Source: a virus
DNA: 10,574 nucleotides
Direction: 5' to 3' (one strand)
UHGV virus genome: UHGV-0338520
Position numbers and translations under genes: made by a program. The notes beneath the pieces were generated by a model, which saw nothing but the letters and a program-made list of their open reading frames with translations, ran no database searches and was not told where the DNA came from. Below, piece by piece: positions 2,189 through 10,574 of the stretch. Within the stretch, counting starts at the first letter, position 1. Each line of letters opens with the position of its first letter.

Positions 2189-2548
2189 ATGCTCATAGAT
2201 TTGGTTTTACCTTACCCGCCGACGGTGAACACTTACTGGCGACGCCGTGGCAGCACATATTTTATCTCGGAGGAGGGAAAGCGTTATCGCCGGGCTGTGG
2301 CGCTTATTGTTCGCCAGCAGCGGCTGAAATTAAGCCTGTCCGGAAGGCTGGCGATAAAGGTGATTGCAGAGCCACCGGATAAGCGTCGTCGCGACCTGGA
2401 CAATATCCTGAAAGCACCGCTGGATGCGCTGACGCATGCGGGAGTGCTCATTGATGACGAGCAGTTTGATGAAATCAATATTGTACGTGGTCAGCCAGTA
2501 TCTGGTGGACGGCTGGGTGTGAAGATTTACAAAATTGAGAGTGAGTGA
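2189..2548 (+). CDS. rusA: RusA-family Holliday junction resolvase
   Basis: 119 aa with AAGAGG RBS. Contains RRRDLDNILKAPLDALTHAGVLIDDEQ, matching the RusA catalytic core (RRRDLDN...DD) as recalled. Usual location in lambdoid nin regions upstream of Q. Confidence 0.85.
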   Translation: MLIDLVLPYPPTVNTYWRRRGSTYFISEEGKRYRRAVALIVRQQRLKLSLSGRLAIKVIAEPPDKRRRDLDNILKAPLDALTHAGVLIDDEQFDEINIVRGQPVSGGRLGVKIYKIESE

Positions 2549-2556
2549 GCGTAAAT

Positions 2557-3108
2557 ATGATATATCCGGAAATTACAGGCAAAAGCGGCGAACATTTACG
2601 CCTGAACACGCTGGAAGCAGTCTGGATCCAGGGGAAATTACGGATGTGGGGGCGGTGGTCGTATATCGGTGGGGGTAAATCCGGAAATATGTTTAACCGG
2701 TTACTGGTTTCGAAAAAGCTGACGAAAACAGCAGTTAATGAGGTTTTACGCAGAATGAAGAAATCCGGGCTGGAAAAACCGGAACTTGAGGCATTTTTTC
2801 GGGATATGACAAGAGGAAAGCAGAAGAGCTGGTTGTCACATTGTACAGACACAGAGGCGTTGATTATTGATCGCGTTATCAGTGAGGTGCTTGGGGAATA
2901 TCCCGGGCTAATCAATGTTCTCCGGCAAAGGTACGAAGGACGGGGAATGAGCAAACTGAAAATGGCCGAAAGGTTAAATGCAGATCATCCTGATTGGTCG
3001 TTGGTTACGTGCAGACGCCGAATTGATCAATGGTTGGGGGTATCTGAATTTATGTTATATGCCCCCATGCGCATGGCTTTTGTTACAGAGAAAAATGTTG
3101 CAAACTGA
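2557..3108 (+). CDS. Putative late-gene antiterminator (Q-like)
   Basis: ATG 2557, with an alternative in-frame GTG at 2545 overlapping the rusA stop. Lies directly downstream of rusA and upstream of a strong terminator, the canonical Q position. Contains a W-G-x-W segment (KLRMWGRWSYIGG...LLVSK) reminiscent of the RWGAW...LITSK segment recalled for Stx-phage Q. Family assignment unverified. Confidence 0.5.
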   Translation: MIYPEITGKSGEHLRLNTLEAVWIQGKLRMWGRWSYIGGGKSGNMFNRLLVSKKLTKTAVNEVLRRMKKSGLEKPELEAFFRDMTRGKQKSWLSHCTDTEALIIDRVISEVLGEYPGLINVLRQRYEGRGMSKLKMAERLNADHPDWSLVTCRRRIDQWLGVSEFMLYAPMRMAFVTEKNVAN

Positions 3109-3209: not shown

Positions 3210-3332
3210 GTGTCCGCGATATACAGTAGCGCAATAAATTCGCTGGTGGTTATTAATACCGTTCTTTCAGCTTGCTGGCTTTTTCTACAAGAGTTATTGG
3301 TGTGTCACGTTAACCGAAAAAGGGAAAAAGAC

Positions 3333-3530
3333 ATGCTAAAACAGCAGGATATGACAGAAACCGCCAGAGTGGTGTTTAATGAATTAAGCGTTACCGAACC
3401 GGCGACAGTCGGGGAGATAGCGCAGAATACTTACCTTTCACGCGAACGCTGCCAGTTAATACTGACCCAGCTGGTTATGGCGGGTCTGGCAGACTATCAG
3501 TTCGGTTGTTACAGACGCCTTCCGCAGTGA
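3333..3530 (+). CDS. Small hypothetical protein (65 aa), possibly winged-helix DNA-binding
   Basis: ATG 3333 preceded by AGGGA with 7-nt spacing. The longer ORF-track start at 3210 has no RBS and begins inside the terminator. Sequence composition is suggestive of a small wHTH fold; this is inference only. Confidence 0.45.
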   Translation: MLKQQDMTETARVVFNELSVTEPATVGEIAQNTYLSRERCQLILTQLVMAGLADYQFGCYRRLPQ

Positions 3531-3557
3531 AGGCTTTTTTATTTGTGGTAAATGGGC

Positions 3558-3588
3558 GGCTGGTGGGTGTTAGGGGCACCCACCAGCC
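3558..3588. repeat. Perfect 12-bp inverted repeat (stem-loop) between the small ORF and the methyltransferase gene
   Basis: ggctggtgggtg (3558-3569), loop ttagggg, cacccaccagcc (3577-3588). No U-tract follows on either strand, so it is not a canonical intrinsic terminator. Confidence 0.7.
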
Positions 3589-3680
3589 ATCTGCTCATGC
3601 GTTGGGTTCACAAGCAAACCTCAGGCCCACTGCTTTGCGCAAAAGCAGAATGAGCCTATCAGAGACAGGCTTAATGAACC

Positions 3681-4730
3681 ATGCTTAATACTGTAAAAAT
3701 ATCCAGTTGTGAGTTAATCAACGCCGACTGCCTGGAATTTATCCGGTCGTTACCCGAAAATTCTGTTGACCTGATAGTCACGGACCCGCCGTACTTTAAA
3801 GTGAAGCCTGAGGGCTGGGATAACCAGTGGAAGGGCGACGATGATTACCTGAAGTGGCTGGACCAGTGTCTGGCGCAGTTCTGGCGGGTGCTGAAACCTG
3901 CCGGAAGTCTTTACCTGTTCTGTGGTCATCGCCTGGCATCTGATATCGAAATCATGATGCGTGAACGCTTCAGTGTGCTGAACCATATTATCTGGGCGAA
4001 GCCGTCCGGATGCTGGAACGGATGCAACAAGGAAAGCCTGCGGGCGTATTTCCCCGCCACAGAGCGCATTCTGTTCGCGGAACATTATCAGGGGCCGTAT
4101 CGTCCGAAAGATGCCGGGTATGAGGCGAAGGGCAGGGCACTGAAACAGCATGTGATGGCCCCGCTGATTTCTTACTTTCGTGATGCGCGCGCGGCCCTGG
4201 GGATAACGGCAAAACAGATTGCAGATGCCACAGGAAAGAAAAACATGGTGTCGCACTGGTTCAGTGCCAGTCAGTGGCAGCTACCGAACGAAAGCGATTA
4301 TCTGAAATTACAGTCGCTGTTTGCCCGGGTGGCAGAAGAGAAACATCAGCGGGGAGAACTGGAAAAGTCCCATTACCAACTGGTCAGCACATACAGTGAG
4401 CTGAACCGGCAGTATACGGAACTGCAGAGTGAATATAAGCATCTGCGGCGGTATTTTGGCGTGACGGCGCAGGTGCCGTACACGGATGTGTGGACGCATA
4501 AACCGGTGCAGTACTATCCAGGGAAACATCCGTGCGAAAAACCGGCAGAAATGCTGCAGCAGATAATCAGCGCAAGTAGTCGTCCTGGTGATCTGGTTGC
4601 GGATTTTTTCATGGGGTCGGGTTCAACGGTAAAAGCGGCGATGGCACTGGGGCGTCGTGCGATTGGTGTTGAGCTGGAGACCGGACGTTTTGAGCAGACA
4701 GTCAGGGAAGTTCAGGATTTAATCGTTTGA
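3681..4730 (+). CDS. DNA methyltransferase, beta-class amino-methyltransferase (N6-adenine or N4-cytosine); orphan
   Basis: 349 aa. Motif IV DPPY near the N-terminus (IVTDPPYFKV) and motif I FxGxG near the C-terminus (FFMGSGSTVKAAMALGRRAIGVE), the beta-class order. No adjacent endonuclease-like ORF. Confidence 0.88.
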   Translation: MLNTVKISSCELINADCLEFIRSLPENSVDLIVTDPPYFKVKPEGWDNQWKGDDDYLKWLDQCLAQFWRVLKPAGSLYLFCGHRLASDIEIMMRERFSVLNHIIWAKPSGCWNGCNKESLRAYFPATERILFAEHYQGPYRPKDAGYEAKGRALKQHVMAPLISYFRDARAALGITAKQIADATGKKNMVSHWFSASQWQLPNESDYLKLQSLFARVAEEKHQRGELEKSHYQLVSTYSELNRQYTELQSEYKHLRRYFGVTAQVPYTDVWTHKPVQYYPGKHPCEKPAEMLQQIISASSRPGDLVADFFMGSGSTVKAAMALGRRAIGVELETGRFEQTVREVQDLIV

Positions 4731-4779
4731 AACGGATGAGATTGCAGAATTAATTACGCACCATTATTATTCTGCTCCC

Positions 4780-4855
4780 GGCCCTTTAGCTCAGTGGTGA
4801 GAGCGAGCGACTCATAATCGCCAGGTCGCTGGTTCAAATCCAGCAAGGGCCACCA
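4780..4855 (+). tRNA. tRNA with anticodon CAT; ileX/ileZ-like tRNA-Ile2 (lysidine) by similarity, formally Met by anticodon
   Basis: Cloverleaf read by eye: acceptor ggccctt/aagggcc, D-stem gctc/gagc, anticodon loop ctCATaa (CAT at 4813-4815), T-arm gctgg-ttcaaat-ccagc, discriminator A and encoded CCA. Closely resembles E. coli ileX as recalled. Confidence 0.85.
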
Positions 4856-4957
4856 TCACAAACCGCCATTAGCTTATCAGGAAGAGCAGACGACACGATA
4901 ACAGGGTTGTTGGTGCGGGGGGGCTGGTCCCCGATGGCGGTCCATTATCGGTATTCA

Positions 4958-5034
4958 GCGTTGTTAGCTCAGCCGGACAGAGCAATTGCCTTCTAAGCAA
5001 TCGGTCACTGGTTCGAATCCAGTACAACGCGCCA
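4958..5034 (+). tRNA. tRNA-Arg (anticodon TCT, reads AGA/AGG)
   Basis: Acceptor gcgttgt/acaacgc, D-stem gctc/gagc, anticodon stem attgc/gcaat with loop ctTCTaa, T-arm cactg-gttcgaatc-cagt, discriminator G and encoded CCA. Confidence 0.88.
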
Positions 5035-5171
5035 TATTCATCCTTCCAGATTCCTTCCGGCAGAGCCTTATACTGGAATATACCTGGCTCAGGATATTGT
5101 TGAAAATATTATATGTTTGTCAAAAATAAAAGTTCTGTTAAGTATTGATTGAGTGTTTGTTATACGGTCTA

Positions 5172-5498
5172 ATGGTTTTTTCAGTATTAAATATTTATCA
5201 TTCATATGGTGTGGGTAGAGTGAATATTGATGGGGCGTCGGGGTGTTTCATCCTTAGGCAGCGTATTGATATAGTCAATGCAGCACGAGCAAAGGCCTTC
5301 AGCCGTTTTACAGTTTTGTTCTGTACTCCTGATCGTCTTTCGGGAAGAGACGTTATTATTCTGAATAGTGATGCTATACAGAGGGTTTGCGATGAGTTCA
5401 TGGTTGCTAATTCAGAATTATTTGCTCTTGTTCAGGAGTACAACAGAATAGCCAGGACCTGTGGTATGGATGAACTTCGGATTACTCATCTGGGGTAG
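5172..5498 (+). CDS. Hypothetical cargo protein (about 108 aa; start uncertain, alternatives TTG 5145 or GTG 5220)
   Basis: Longest ORF in an AT-rich island. Protein-like composition, no recognisable family and no strong RBS. Nine of 108 codons are ATA/AGA/AGG. Confidence 0.45.
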   Translation: MVFSVLNIYHSYGVGRVNIDGASGCFILRQRIDIVNAARAKAFSRFTVLFCTPDRLSGRDVIILNSDAIQRVCDEFMVANSELFALVQEYNRIARTCGMDELRITHLG

Positions 5499-5889
5499 AT
5501 ACATATCTGGATTATCACCTGTTACGGTAAAAAGTGATAGCTTACTGTTTTTGTGAATGGCATTGCAGCAGCCGGATAATGTCAGTGCTGGCTGACGGTG
5601 TGCTGGTGGCGGGTGTGGTGGTTGTTGCTTTCCCGTTGCTGAAAAAGAAAACGCCAGACTGTTAGCCGGGTATCAGTTAGCGGGAGAAATTTTTAAATAC
5701 TTCACAATTCAGGCGGTTGACTGTTGTCTGGTTTGCGGGGAGTTTGTTAAAAGAAACTGGCATGGTGAATCCCCCTGTGCGGAGGGGCAATCAGCGAGTA
5801 GGTATATGGGATAATCGCGGATTCAGGTGCTGGTACTGAATTCACCGGGAGGCACCCGGCACCATGCAATGGCACATAGCGCCACTCTC

Positions 5890-5918
5890 CAGCCCCTCTC
5901 CGGAGGGGCTGTTTATAT
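5890..5918 (+). terminator. Rho-independent terminator inside the cargo island
   Basis: Perfect 9-bp stem cagcccctc (5890-5898), loop tccg, gaggggctg (5903-5911), followed by tttatattgatttt. Confidence 0.6.
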
Positions 5919-5945
5919 TGATTTTGTCAGATGTGAGTAAACTCC

Positions 5946-6281
5946 TTATGGACTTTGTTGTTTTAGCCCATAAGGACATATTTGCAGAGTGCAACGGTTA
6001 TTAAAGCATTCATTCAATACGTTATCTGTATTTGTAGGGCATTCCTGGCTGTTTTTGATTAAATTCCAGAATGTTTTATTGAATGGTACTACGTTGTAAA
6101 TGGTTACAGGTAGCACTTTGTTATTGAGCATGATACCTGTGTGAGTCAGTGTAAATATACTTTCAGGAGGTAAGAAAGCATCCGATTGATACCAGATTAT
6201 TAATTTTATTTTACTCCATATGACTGAAAAAGATATTCCGCATGATGGCTGGATAACTGTATCAATCACAATCCACTTCAT
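5946..6281 (-). CDS. Hypothetical cargo protein (111 aa) on the opposite strand to the late operon
   Basis: Minus-strand ORF with AAGGAA Shine-Dalgarno about 7 nt upstream of its ATG. Six ATA codons, five Cys, no recognisable family. It is one of only two supported minus-strand genes in the window. Confidence 0.55.
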
Positions 6282-6321
6282 TTAGTTTCCTTGTTTATGC
6301 CTTGCTGGTGATGTTCTGAAA

Positions 6322-6348
6322 AGTATAAATGATATTTTTGATTGTAAA
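6322..6348 (-). promoter_or_regulatory. Candidate sigma70 promoter for the minus-strand cargo gene
   Basis: On the minus strand: TTTACA (plus 6343-6348), 15-nt spacer, TATACT (plus 6322-6327), about 40 nt upstream of the RBS. Sits in a very AT-rich 245-bp divergent intergenic region. The spacer is short, so this is weak. Confidence 0.3.
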
Positions 6349-6541
6349 CCATAGAGCAGAATTATTTTTCTGATGTTGTTTATTGTTTATTTAAATGCAG
6401 GGTGGTTTATATCTCGTCTTGTAGTTTATCCATGCATATCTGCTTGATGATGAGGTTTTTATTTAAGGTATGGTTTTGTGTTTTTTCTGTATTACATGTC
6501 AGGTATTTTAAAGAATCATTTTTCAGATGGTGGAAAGAACC

Positions 6542-6730
6542 ATGGCATTTAAACACTATGATGTTGTCAGGGCGGCGTCGCCGTCAGATCTTGCGGAAAA
6601 GCTGACACATAAACTGAAAGAGGGCTGGCAGCCGTTTGGTAGTCCGGTGGCCATAACCCCTTATACCCTGATGCAGGCGATTGCAGCAGAAGGTGATGTG
6701 GTGGTCAGTGGTGCAACTGAGCCGGAGTGA
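6542..6730 (+). CDS. Small conserved-looking phage protein upstream of the holin (62 aa from ATG 6542)
   Basis: ORF-track ORF 6527-6730; the second ATG at 6542 has a GGTGGAAAG RBS-like sequence upstream. Sequence MAFKHYDVVRAASPSDLAEKLTHKLKEGWQPFG... is protein-like; family not confidently recalled. Confidence 0.5.
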   Translation: MAFKHYDVVRAASPSDLAEKLTHKLKEGWQPFGSPVAITPYTLMQAIAAEGDVVVSGATEPE

Positions 6731-6974
6731 TACTACGTCATCGTACTGGCCCGGCATTCCAGGCCATAAAAGACGGTCTGGCAGTGGGACTAAATGCACT
6801 GACGCTGACGGATATTACCAAAAATGCAACGTATGGCGTTGAGATAGAAAGTCTGGTGCTGGAGATAAATGCACCGGCATCATCATAAAAAGTGAGCCAG
6901 TCAAATGGAAGGTATCGTTAAACTCACCGGTAGTGTCAGTGGGTCGTCTGAGACGCCTGCATGAGTTATCAGAG

Positions 6975-7005
6975 CCATCAGTACTTAACTGGTGGCTTTT
7001 TTATT
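6975..7005 (+). terminator. Terminator-like hairpin about 35 nt upstream of the holin start
   Basis: Stem ccatcagt (6975-6982), loop actta, stem actggtgg (6988-6995) with one G-U pair, then c and ttttttatt. Confidence 0.4.
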
Positions 7006-7037
7006 GTTGTCAGCTTCCGGATAACGGGAGACGGGGT

Positions 7038-7253
7038 ATGTACCAGATGGAAAAAATCACAACAGGTGTGTCATACACCACGTCAGCGGTGGGAACGGGC
7101 TACTGGTTCCTGCAGTTGCTGGACAGGGTTTCCCCGTCTCAGTGGGCGGCAATAGGCGTGCTGGGGAGTCTGCTGTTTGGGCTGCTGACATATCTGACTA
7201 ACCTGTATTTCAAAATCAAAGAGGACCGGCGTAAGGCGGCGCGGGGAGAGTAA
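7038..7253 (+). CDS. Class II pinholin, phage 21 S-like, with dual start (Met1 antiholin, Met4 holin)
   Basis: Translation [71 protein letters not shown] (71 aa) closely matches S21 as recalled (...[25 protein letters not shown]...[20 protein letters not shown]). GGAG RBS. The ORF-track start at 6933 is an upstream extension. Confidence 0.9.
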
Positions 7254-7257
7254 AGTG

Positions 7258-8148
7258 ATGAATAAAAAATATGAACTGGTTGTTAAGGGGATAAATAATT
7301 ACGGGGATAAGGTTACTGTTACTGTGAAGCCGGAAGGTGACGGGCAAGCGTCGCTGTTGTTGCCAGATGTGGCGATTAGTCTTGACCGTACTGAAGGTGC
7401 CACGCTGGAGTTTTACGAAGCTGAGGCGAAAAAGCAGGCGAAGCAGTTTTTCATGGATGTTGCTGCCGGGTTATGTGAAGGGGATGGTCCGTTGCCGGAA
7501 AAGCGCCCCGTAATTTTAGAGGCGCAGGATGTGTTGATAACCTACAAAGGAAAGCTACCGGGAAGAATTACTTGTTCTCTGAAGATGCCGCCGTCAACAC
7601 TGCGGTCAGAAAAAGATGATGTTGAATCACGTATTGAAAAACTGGAGAGCTACGTCGTTGAGCTGAATAAGAAATGGTCGATATTGGTGCCTTCTGGCGA
7701 TGAAAAGCAGTTTGCTGCGTTTGACGATTATTGTCGGAAAGTGATGAGCAGAAATCTCGCAGAGTGTTTCAGTATTCATAATGATAATTTCAGTGACCCG
7801 GAATGGGAGTGTAACCGGCCATCCTTTGTTGTATCCGGTGATGCTGGGAAAATAACCATCTCAGAAAATGGGAAAGTAACACCTCCATCGCACCAGCACA
7901 GTGAGGAGCTCATTGAATTTGCCATTGATTACCTGAAGAACAATAAAAAGCAGGGGCTGATGAAGCGCGTTGGCCGTTGCATGGGATATCTGCAGGTAGC
8001 TGCTGAGATTGAAGCGCTGGCCAGTGGTGCTGATAAGGATGCAATTGTGCGGGAGGCTCTTCTTCGTGATTTTAATACTCCACCCTTTAAAAAAGTGCCG
8101 GCTTACTGGCTTCATCCGGGGCTGACTTATCTTAAAGTGCGTATTTAG
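7258..8148 (+). CDS. Hypothetical soluble protein (296 aa) inserted between pinholin and endolysin
   Basis: GGGAGAG RBS 7 nt upstream of ATG 7258; start lies 4 nt after the holin stop. No transmembrane segments or catalytic motifs recognisable by eye. Confidence 0.75.
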   Translation: MNKKYELVVKGINNYGDKVTVTVKPEGDGQASLLLPDVAISLDRTEGATLEFYEAEAKKQAKQFFMDVAAGLCEGDGPLPEKRPVILEAQDVLITYKGKLPGRITCSLKMPPSTLRSEKDDVESRIEKLESYVVELNKKWSILVPSGDEKQFAAFDDYCRKVMSRNLAECFSIHNDNFSDPEWECNRPSFVVSGDAGKITISENGKVTPPSHQHSEELIEFAIDYLKNNKKQGLMKRVGRCMGYLQVAAEIEALASGADKDAIVREALLRDFNTPPFKKVPAYWLHPGLTYLKVRI

Positions 8149-8184
8149 TGGGCCAGGGACAGCGGCTGAATATTTAATATATCC

Positions 8185-8718
8185 ATGAACACCAAAATCA
8201 AATACGGCCTGTCGGCTGCCGTTCTGGCGCTGATTGCCGCTGGTGCGCCTGCGCCTGACATTCTCGACCAGTTTCTGGATGAAAAGGAAGGTAACCACAC
8301 CACGGCATACCGTGATGGTGCGGGTATCTGGACCATCTGCCGCGGTGCCATCCTGGTGGATGGCAAACCTGTCGTTCCGGGCATGAAGTTGTCGAAGGAA
8401 AAATGCGACCGGGTTAACGCCATTGAGCGTGATAAGGCGCTGGCATGGGTGGAGAAAAACATCAGAGTGCCATTGAGTGAACCCCAGAAAGCGGGGATCG
8501 CGTCATTCTGTCCGTACAACATTGGTCCCGGTAAGTGTTTCCCGTCGACGTTTTATAAACGAATTAATGCAGGTGATCGCAGGGGAGCGTGTGAGGCGAT
8601 TCGCTGGTGGATTAAGGACGGTGGCAGAGACTGCCGTATTCGTTCAAACAACTGCTACGGTCAGGTATCCCGTCGTGACCAGGAGAGCGCGCTGGCGTGC
8701 TGGGGAATCGACAGATAA
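8185..8718 (+). CDS. SAR endolysin (T4-lysozyme-like muramidase, R21-type)
   Basis: 177 aa. N-terminal Gly/Ala-rich weakly hydrophobic SAR segment GLSAAVLALIAAGAPAP. Catalytic triad spacing E35-x8-D44-x5-T50 (EGNHTTAYRDGAGIWT), identical in position to R21 as recalled. C-terminal lysozyme-like region. Confidence 0.9.
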   Translation: MNTKIKYGLSAAVLALIAAGAPAPDILDQFLDEKEGNHTTAYRDGAGIWTICRGAILVDGKPVVPGMKLSKEKCDRVNAIERDKALAWVEKNIRVPLSEPQKAGIASFCPYNIGPGKCFPSTFYKRINAGDRRGACEAIRWWIKDGGRDCRIRSNNCYGQVSRRDQESALACWGIDR

Positions 8719-8808
8719 GCAGAATATTTTGCTGAAAAATAAGGTATGGCCACGCGGGCGGATAACACGAAATCCTGCGAACTGGCGAAACGTAAGTGAA
8801 TAAAAGTA

Positions 8809-8847
8809 AAAACCCCGTTTGTTGGCACCAAGCGGGGTTTTGTGTTT
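8809..8847 (+). terminator. Terminator-like hairpin between endolysin and Rz
   Basis: 9-bp perfect inverted repeat aaaaccccg (8809-8817) and cggggtttt (8833-8841) around a 15-nt loop, followed by T-rich gtgtttcc. Confidence 0.4.
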
Positions 8848-8877
8848 CCTGACTCCGGAAAAGTCAAAGGAGAAAGT

Positions 8878-9015
8878 GTGTTTGATTTTAGCAAACTGAT
8901 TCGGGAGATTCGAGTGATGGCTGAAAAATTATCCACCTGGAAGTTCATTCTTATCTGGCTGGTGTTTGTGATTATGGCCTCCGGTTATTTCATCGGTCAG
9001 ATACGCTGGTGGTGA
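8878..9015 (+). CDS. Small single-pass membrane protein candidate (45 aa from GTG 8878, or 32 aa from ATG 8917)
   Basis: AAAGGAG RBS 5 nt upstream of in-frame GTG 8878. Translation [45 protein letters not shown]. Stop TGA 9013-9015 is 1 nt before the Rz ATG. Not in the ORF track because it is under 60 aa. Confidence 0.4.
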
Positions 9016-9016
9016 A

Positions 9017-9484
9017 ATGAACCGCGTACTGTGCGTGGTCATCATTGCCCTGCTGGTGGCCTGTGGTGCGCTTAGTCTGGGGCTGAATCATTACCGTGAT
9101 AACGCCATTACCTACAAAGCCCAGCGCGACAAAAATGTCAGAGAACTGAAGCTGGCGAACGCGGCAATTACTGACATGCAGATGCGTCAGCGTGATGTTG
9201 CTGCGCTCGATGCAAAATACACGAAGGAGTTAGCTGATGCGAAAGCTGAAAATGAAACTCTTCGCGCTGACGTTGCCGCTGGTCGTAAGCGCCTGCGTAT
9301 CAACGCCACCTGTCCAGGTCCCGTGCGTGAAGCCACCGGCACCGCCCGCGTGGATAATGCAACCGGCCCCCAACTGGCAGACACCGTTACACGGGATTAT
9401 TTCACCCTCAGAGAGCGGCTGATGACGATGCAGAAGCAACTGGAAGGGGCGCAGGAATATATCCGTACTCAGTGCCTGAAATAA
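9017..9484 (+). CDS. Rz: Rz i-spanin
   Basis: 155 aa. [56 protein letters not shown]... is near-identical to lambda Rz as recalled. N-terminal transmembrane segment. Confidence 0.92.
9237..9422 (+). CDS. Rz1: Rz1 o-spanin lipoprotein, embedded in Rz in the +1 frame
   Basis: [25 protein letters not shown]...[32 protein letters not shown] matches lambda Rz1 as recalled. Lipobox LVVSAC and proline-rich region. Confidence 0.88.
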
Positions 9485-10367: not shown

Positions 10368-10457
10368 TTAATACGATACCTGCGTCATAATTGATTGTTC
10401 GCTGCATAGCGGTCCGACCCCGTACTGCTCACGCAGCTTATCCAGCAGTGGCATCAT
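10368..10457 (-). pseudogene. Truncated IS3-family OrfB (first about 20 codons, then unrelated sequence and a stop)
   Basis: The -1 frame relative to OrfA gives [20 protein letters not shown] then QSIMTQVSY*. An intact OrfB would be about 290 aa. Confidence 0.5.
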
Positions 10458-10574
10458 TTTTTCCAGAGGCGGTCGAACTCCGCCTTCGCAAAATAAGCGG
10501 AAGCCTGGCGAAGGATATCGTTACTGCGGCGCAGTTCACGATTTTCACGTTCCAGCTCTTTCAGACGCTGACGT
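10395..10574 (-). mobile_element. Truncated IS3-family insertion sequence (IS629/IS1203-like from memory); continues beyond the window end
   Basis: Minus-strand translation ...[39 protein letters not shown] is a typical IS3-family OrfA leucine-zipper C-terminus. An overlapping -1 frame starts [20 protein letters not shown] (OrfB start) but hits a stop after 29 codons, so similarity appears to end near 10395-10398. Confidence 0.6.
10454..10574 (-). CDS. IS3-family transposase OrfA, C-terminal 39 codons (partial; start lies beyond the window)
   Basis: Open minus-strand frame from the window edge to the stop at plus 10454-10456, with an A6 slippery-like run immediately before the stop and the overlapping OrfB ATG. 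Confidence 0.6.

Follow-up and report, generated by a model that had tools for sequence, protein, structure and literature searches.

IraL, encoded in the potB prophage of CFT073, has been characterised in experiments as an anti-adaptor of RssB (Hryckowian et al. 2014, PMC4045071). It confers a higher level and stability of RpoS in unstressed log-phase growth, and iraL is over-represented among uropathogenic, prostatitis and Shigella isolates (PMC4045071). IraM of K-12, a PhoP-induced RssB anti-adaptor encoded beside prophage e14, belongs to the same family and likewise lies in prophage-derived DNA. Small RNAs of the STnc100 family are represented by 11 transcribed copies in EDL933, one of which was confirmed by Northern blot. 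STnc100 overlaps the Hfq-bound EcOnc27/sRNA103 downstream of stx2B, and transcription and Hfq binding of the family have been reported in the EHEC strains EDL933 and Sakai. STnc100 has also been found in vesicles of STEC strains and is regarded as PasD-related, and the idea of a recombination substrate has already been raised for the Pas small RNAs. The locus analysed here, positions 5040-6520 of an E. coli lambdoid prophage, very probably represents a mosaic, partly decayed cargo region made up of iraL, an STnc100 small RNA, a remnant of tciB and a further gene, ORF1, at the same locus as in the CFT073 potB prophage.

Results

Organization of the window

The window (the whole stretch that was analysed, 10,574 nucleotides of UHGV virus genome UHGV-0338520) is a 10.6-kb late region of an E. 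coli lambdoid prophage. Its features are listed by position, strand where assigned, and description.

Start of the window: hok-type ORF, the first feature
1130-2176: DUF968
2189-2548: RusA
2545-3108: Q antiterminator, DUF1133-type
Between Q and the DNA methylase: small hypothetical gene
3681-4730: DNA methylase
4780-4855, + strand: tRNA with CAT anticodon (Met according to ARAGORN), left side of the cargo slot
4958-5034, + strand: tRNA-Arg (TCT), the last feature in common with the Stx2a phage before the cargo
5039-5219, + strand: junction and leader, 32.6% GC
5220-5498, + strand: ORF1, most likely 92 aa, phrog_2873
5534-5665, + strand: putative tciB/DUF3927 remnant, 43 aa (Pfam PF13064)
5731-5920, + strand: STnc100 small RNA assigned by Rfam (RF02076), ending in an intrinsic terminator
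5946-6281, - strand: gene assigned as iraL, 111 aa (NCBIfam NF007393; product identical to CFT073 IraL)
6282-6348, - strand: iraL 5' UTR and promoter, from the published 5'-RACE sequence mapped onto the window
6349-6526, no strand: iraL upstream region, ~29% GC, part of the iraL insert, whose end coincides with the start of nanS-p homology (6541)
6527-6888, + strand: NanS-p/YjhS sialate esterase remnants, right island border
3' of the nanS-p remnants: holin, DUF1327/YdfR-like gene, lysozyme, Rz/Rz1
Far end of the window: IS3-family insertion sequence, frameshift element

The RefSeq annotation labels a gene identical to the CAT-anticodon tRNA at 4780-4855 as tRNA-Ile (the ileZ type of Stx phages). 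The island at 5040-6520 has a GC content of 39.6%, compared with 50.8% in the left and 48.4% in the right flank, and the values fall to 34.5% in the iraL gene and 29.4% in the region upstream of it; the AT-richness claimed in an earlier, sequence-only reading of this DNA was therefore confirmed. Of 5426 complete E. coli genomes, 863 contain 80% or more of the segment 5040-6520, and many E. coli chromosomes match it at 100% identity. No full-length match to the whole window was obtained among the same 5426 genomes, the best having 85% coverage at ~98% identity.

Comparison with an Stx2a phage

Window positions 3235-5038 aligned at 93% identity to the Stx2a phage Stx2_95 (LC567838) through the hypothetical gene, the methylase and the tRNAs, and the alignment ended at 5038. 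In Stx2_95, stx2AB takes the place of window 5039-~5700. Homology returned in the small RNA (5702-5788 and 5835-5916), which in Stx2_95 is located directly 3' of stx2B, and then at the start of nanS-p (6541-6594). The window follows the order of the Stx2a phage slot (methylase, ileZ-type tRNA, tRNA-Arg, cargo, STnc100, nanS-p, holin, YdfR-like gene, lysozyme, Rz), and its flanks on both sides are 90-94% identical to Stx2_95, so that the late-region layout of Stx phages, as proposed from the sequence, was borne out by the alignment. Unlike Stx2_95, the window carries ORF1 and the tciB remnant in place of stx2AB, iraL as an extra insert of ~620 bp between the small RNA and nanS-p, and a nanS-p gene that is internally deleted. 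The latter consists of an N-terminal remnant (DUF1737, 6527-6730) and a C-terminal remnant (6727-6888) separated by an internal deletion of ~1.5 kb, as judged from phrog_143, which was matched at 1-58 and 582-632 of its 634 positions, and from blastn against JLK-2012. With regard to stxA and stxB, the window had no homology to positions 3223-4463 of locus L003, and the ORFs of the slot are unrelated. In a lambdoid E. coli prophage that is not an Stx phage, the island is the cargo (moron) region of the stx-equivalent slot.

The minus-strand gene

The 111-aa minus-strand protein matched the NCBIfam model NF007393 ('anti-adapter protein IraM') over residues 1-110 of 111 with 162 bits (cutoff 121). 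It is 100% identical to WP_000871291.1, the IraL of the CFT073 potB prophage, and 62% identical over 107 aa to K-12 IraM. By protein identity, the gene at 5946-6281 is assigned as iraL, an RssB anti-adaptor of the IraM/IraL family.

The published 5'-RACE sequence of iraL (ACATCACCAGCAAGGCATAAACAAGGAAAC) was found in the window and places the transcription start at 6314 on the minus strand. Upstream of it are a -10 element (TATACT, 6327-6322) and a -35-like element (TTTACA, 6348-6343); the spacer to the assigned -35 is short, 15 nt. An AAGGAA RBS lies 5' of the ATG. The sequence-only reading had described an opposite-strand 111-aa gene at 5946-6281 with this RBS and promoter-like elements, all of which are present, and the published start together with the mapped elements means that its guesses were correct. 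As read from these matches, iraL has its own sigma-70 promoter and is expected to be expressed from the lysogen, as had been supposed for a moron at this position.

The resemblance to the CFT073 potB prophage extends beyond the gene. The tRNAs, DUF3927, the iraM-like gene, the DUF1737 remnant and the holin occur there in the same order, and identity to the CFT073 locus is 95% over window 4741-7593. The two differ in the upstream backbone, which comprises a DNA methylase and a DUF1133-type Q here and an IS200 with three tRNAs in CFT073, and in the lysis region, where identity is only ~85%. Homology to K-12 iraM, in contrast, is confined to the coding region (72.5% at the nucleotide level); the promoters are therefore unrelated, which fits the differing regulation reported for the two genes. 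PhoP control as in K-12 iraM was considered for iraL and rejected, since the single PhoP-box-like repeat (6377-6393) was no better than chance.

Lying on the strand opposite to the late operon, iraL would be transcribed leftward from its sigma-70 promoter in the lysogen. IraL would bind the N-terminal domain of the RssB adaptor and so prevent delivery of sigma-S (RpoS) to ClpXP, with the consequence that RpoS would accumulate already in log phase. The experiments behind this mechanism were carried out with the identical protein elsewhere, and the link to the present locus is identity of the protein and of the start-site sequence. The gene would then represent a lysogenic conversion acting on the host stress response.

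The tciB remnant

The 43-aa ORF at 5534-5665 matched PF13064 (DUF3927) with 95.6 bits against a gathering score of 25, and was placed in a 'TciB-like' PHROG labelled 'inhibition of cell division or resistance to colicin'. Papers retrieved for the name TciB were all unrelated. Full-length TciB, taken as the reference, has ~50-54 aa and two hydrophobic helices and is coupled to an upstream TerB-like gene, tciA. Compared with the full-length proteins of JLK-2012, L018 and L010, the window protein kept only '...SSRIMSVLADGVLVAGVVVVAFPLLKKK...', and at the nucleotide level the window is homologous to full-length tciB from 5566 onward. The ORF has kept its second transmembrane helix and C-terminus, and 10 unrelated residues stand in place of the first hydrophobic helix. 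TerB-like tciA is absent from the window locus, and the ORF falls short of a full-length tciB. As in the tciA-tciB cassette of JLK-2012, the ORF lies before STnc100, and the C-terminal 30 residues are nearly identical; unlike that cassette, the window has neither tciA nor the first helix of TciB, and the 10-residue N-terminus is new. Judged from these alignments, 5534-5665 is a deletion remnant, a 5'-truncated tciB left after loss of tciA and the tciB start, and it is probably not functional.

The small RNA and its terminator

Rfam STnc100 (RF02076) was matched at 5731-5920 over the full model (positions 1-206) with 132.4 bits, the gathering score being 47. The region folded better than its shuffles (z = -2.26) and contains a terminator with a nine-pair stem (7 GC pairs, 5890-5911) followed by the T-run TTTATATT. 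By its model match, the small RNA is assigned to the PasD/EcOnc27-related STnc100 family. Like the Hfq-associated prophage small RNAs PasD and EcOnc27/sRNA103, it matches the model in full length and ends in a terminator, and like known copies of the family it lies 3' of the slot cargo and 5' of the sialate esterase gene. Its 3' part differs from the mEp460 and JLK-2012 copies from ~5868 onward. HnrS (PMC13502914) was ruled out as the window small RNA, being a different RNA of 66 nt. A structured region of roughly 390 nt ending in a terminator had been noticed from the sequence alone; the hairpin and T-run stood, but the region proved to be the DUF3927 ORF and the catalogued STnc100, both of which that reading had overlooked.

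The terminator is located 26 nt past the iraL stop codon. In the lysogen it may shield iraL from rightward (+ strand) transcription of the side bearing the tRNAs, ORF1 and the small RNA, and after induction a Q-modified polymerase would be expected to read through it, antisense across iraL. The small RNA itself is a regular constituent of the region in Stx and related phages.

ORF1: sequence, start and predicted fold

ORF1 matched phrog_2873 end to end (positions 1-108, 3e-68) and phrog_4827 weakly. Profile searches gave no Pfam, NCBIfam, PADLOC or PDB-sequence match, and Pfam scans of all 13 ORF1 family members gave nothing consistent. HMMER, run exhaustively against 1.84 billion representative proteins, yielded only 21 relatives, several of them 30-60% identical and 91-95 aa long. 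Conserved motifs of the family are R23, P37-D-R/K, N64 and Y74-N75 (92-aa numbering).

The homologues align from window residue V17, which corresponds to the GTG at 5220, and in the homologue of L018 an AGGAG lies four bases 5' of the aligned GTG, at a position where the window has GTGGG. On account of both observations, ORF1 most likely spans 5220-5498 and encodes 92 aa. Starts at TTG 5145 or ATG 5172 were rejected, since other alleles and subfamilies do not preserve the reading frame of the upstream extension and the aligned GTG has an AGGAG in a homologue. The ORF of about 108 aa at 5172-5498 that had been called from the sequence is thus present, but probably with a later start and a shorter product. 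In the leader (5039-5219), positions 5039-5142 had no counterpart among the related loci examined, homology to the leader of ORF1 homologues begins at 5143, and promoter-like matches were weak only. Since ORF1 is co-oriented with the late operon, it would be expressed at least after induction.

The 92-aa product has a pI of 6.5 and no membrane segment. AlphaFold (AF2) gave a pLDDT of 89.9 when supplied with the family alignment, compared with 37.7 for the 108-aa single sequence. The model has two long antiparallel helices (3-34 and 50-81) with a short beta-hairpin between them, and the product is accordingly predicted to be a cytoplasmic helical-hairpin protein. Fold searches returned generic antiparallel coiled-coil hairpins only, with Foldseek E-values >0.06. 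The similarity to the anti-activator TraM (2q0o_D), with a TM of 0.74-0.78, is not specific.

Genomic context of the ORF1 relatives

Homologues of two subfamilies, 58-62% identical to ORF1, lie 20-130 nt 3' of a 241-242-aa AraC (HTH_18) gene on the same strand, and this regulator is most similar to YdeO and GadX. In the E. coli loci L018 and L019 the order is methylase, AraC, ORF1 homologue, tciA, tciB, holin. In STEC1585 (L016) it is tRNAs, a TolA-like gene, STnc100, a methylase fragment, AraC, the ORF1 homologue, three STnc100 copies and nanS-p. The Citrobacter loci L010 and L011 have an ORF1 version between Q and holin, followed by tciA-tciB. Homologues in Citrobacter and in other E. coli prophages occupy the slot in which ORF1 lies here. 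Among more distant relatives, some are encoded on IncF plasmids of pig and cattle origin, next to a PapB-type fimbrial regulator, and others follow a bfp-like type IV pilus operon or lie near a GerE regulator. In the literature, the PsrA/PsrB/PatE group comprises prophage acid-resistance regulators.

The position of these relatives next to regulators suggests, and does not prove, that ORF1 is a small partner of regulators. Our best guess, in which we have little confidence, is that the protein serves horizontally acquired transcription regulators as a small, protein-binding regulatory partner. More broadly, ORF1 might tentatively be placed in an undescribed helical-hairpin family of prophage slots and plasmids, commonly missed in the annotation of E. 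coli genomes, whose members travel with YdeO/GadX-like AraC, GerE- or PapB-type regulators and with pilus operons and modulate these regulators or host stress and acid-resistance circuits.

A narrower alternative, also doubtful, is that ORF1 works as a co-regulator or anti-activator dedicated to the prophage YdeO/GadX-like AraC protein, the window copy having been orphaned by loss of the regulator. The AraC gene directly 5' of the homologues in two subfamilies speaks for it, as do the GerE- and PapB-type regulators and pilus operons near other homologues and the unspecific resemblance of the fold to small helical-hairpin binders such as TraM. However, the AraC neighbour occurs in 2 of ~8 ORF1 subfamilies, and the versions of the window, CFT073, mEp460 and Citrobacter have no adjacent regulator. 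The similarity in fold is generic.

Selection on ORF1

That ORF1 is instead a spurious or decaying frame, with iraL and the small RNA alone being of importance, was judged very unlikely. The NCBI pipeline leaves it unannotated in three RefSeq genomes (CFT073, WP5-S18 and STEC1585), and the window allele has a weak Shine-Dalgarno sequence. Most differences between close alleles are non-synonymous (3 versus 0-1 synonymous, too few events to interpret), and rare alleles have internal deletions. Against these points, comparison of the window with a homologue of 58% identity gave a dN/dS of 0.28, and comparison of two other subfamilies one of 0.23, whereas shifted frames gave 0.8-1.2. Length and motifs are conserved even in homologues of 30-40% identity from Citrobacter, plasmids and metagenomes, the L018 homologue has a good AGGAG 5' of its start, and the AlphaFold model became confident once the alignment was given. 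ORF1 is a real gene under purifying selection.

Mosaic structure of the island

In mEp460, ORF1, the truncated tciB and STnc100 occur with no iraL, and phage 640R1 has iraL with no ORF1. Each gene is thus found without the other, and the two do not form a two-gene system. Together with its AT-rich upstream DNA, iraL (5917-6540) replaces ~170-220 bp between STnc100 and nanS-p of JLK-2012 and Stx2_95. Breakpoints relative to the related phages are at 5038, 5566, 5702, 5868/5876, 5917 and 6541, several of them at or inside STnc100. The comparison across prophages put the outermost breakpoints at 5038 and 6541, with ORF1 and iraL as independent modules between them.

In the related loci, a copy of STnc100 follows every cargo cassette (stx, tciAB, AraC-ORF1, TolA-like and iraL), the copies being located after stx2B, tciB, the TolA-like gene and the ORF1 homologues. 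The modules were very probably joined by recombination at shared sequences, and a copy after every cassette would be expected if the shared element is the recombination substrate. STnc100 copies could then serve as recombination linkers and terminators between exchangeable stx-slot cassettes, which we regard as a weaker reading than that of the ORF1 family as modulators of regulators.

Discussion

The locus is an ordinary lysogenic-conversion locus that has already been described, as CFT073 iraL, and the novelty that remains is the unannotated 92-aa helical-hairpin gene. The sequence-only reading had called the island uncharacterised and found neither of its proteins recognisable. The first description does not hold, since iraL and STnc100 are known and ORF1 alone is of truly unknown function, and the second applies only to ORF1, which has no Pfam or NCBIfam family. 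The profile and structure searches it had called for identified IraL and gave ORF1 a PHROG and a confident fold, but no informative fold match.

It had also hinted at virulence, defence or superinfection exclusion, and nothing indicating a toxin, a defence system or exclusion was found, the PADLOC defence models giving no match to ORF1, the truncated TciB or IraL at E <= 0.1. That the two proteins jointly provide a novel function of this kind, as the classic AT-rich moron slot, an ORF1 of no known function and the PHROG label of DUF3927/TciB might suggest, is highly improbable, given that the minus-strand protein has a known function, that of IraL, that PADLOC matched no island protein, that ORF1 and iraL occur independently, and that tciB is truncated with one transmembrane helix lost.

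The corrective value of the analysis is that the slot carries a documented lysogenic-conversion gene, iraL, and not an unknown toxin or defence gene. ORF1, conserved at 92 aa and lacking a Pfam family, would be a cheap target for functional work. The comparison of related loci shows the stx slot rebuilt from cassettes, each with a copy of STnc100 behind it.

STnc100 copies in the cargo region

Copies of the prophage small RNA STnc100 (Rfam RF02076) were located in four loci.

STnc100 copies in the window and in related loci
Window, 5731-5920 (+): one copy
Stx2a phage Stx2_95 (L003), 4538-4752: one copy
Related prophage locus L005, 3945-4138 and 4414-4602: two copies
STEC1585 (L016), 3575-3787, 5547-5742, 5806-6005 and 6067-6256: four copies

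The related prophages had an STnc100 copy downstream of every cargo cassette carried in the stx slot, whether this was stx2B, tciB, a TolA-like gene or a homologue of ORF1, and one STEC prophage carried three copies in tandem. Several of the mosaic breakpoints fell inside STnc100, which suggests that this element separates neighbouring cassettes, serving either as a linker for recombination or as a terminator.

In window 5890-5946, only 26 nt separate the STnc100 terminator stem from the stop codon of iraL, the RssB anti-adaptor gene on the minus strand. On that strand the terminator hairpin is not followed by a U-tract and, given the short gap, transcription of iraL may run on into STnc100 in the antisense direction. 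Pairing between the iraL transcript and STnc100 is possible.

RefSeq genomes have a partial "hypothetical protein" pseudogene annotated antisense within STnc100, at window 5747-5875 (-). This call is almost certainly spurious.

Flanking regions

The NanS-p/YjhS sialate O-acetylesterase gene beyond the island was reduced to two pieces by a deletion of ~1.5 kb relative to phage JLK-2012; at the deletion junction the alignments overlap by 16 nt (window 6746-6761). The features from this gene to the right end, and at the left edge, were as follows.

Features flanking the island (window coordinates)
160-315: Hok-family toxin ORF
6527-6888: remnant NanS-p gene
6527-6730: N-terminal piece, DUF1737
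6727-6888: C-terminal piece
6971-6999: hairpin of 12 pairs with a T-run, immediately upstream of the holin gene
7255-8148: ORF of 297 aa, flanked by the genes for holin and lysozyme
10400-10499 (-): ALIL pseudoknot (RF01497, 75.9 bits), an IS3-family transposase frameshift signal

The small RNAs PasA and PasC are located between esterase and holin according to the literature; the 6971-6999 hairpin, which has no Rfam entry, lies at this position. The 297-aa ORF has a DUF1327/YdfR N-terminus and matched phrog_1085 over its full length, whereas its counterparts in the CFT073 prophage and 640R1 are far shorter (~115 aa). The ALIL pseudoknot places an insertion sequence just past the lysis genes, and the prophage may therefore be defective. 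In related loci the sok antisense RNA of the Hok-family ORF spans the position of the window start, so that sok is cut off here.

In the K-12 iraM locus (L002), the iraM-ymgK-ymgL-ycgX segment occupies 7681-9108, and iraM neighbours the DUF1398 gene ycgX. In the CFT073 prophage, a gene of the same family, ydfO, lies directly after the lysis genes. Because the DUF1398 family is common to both, the surroundings of iraM in K-12 may also derive from the late region of a lambdoid prophage, of which they would be a remnant.
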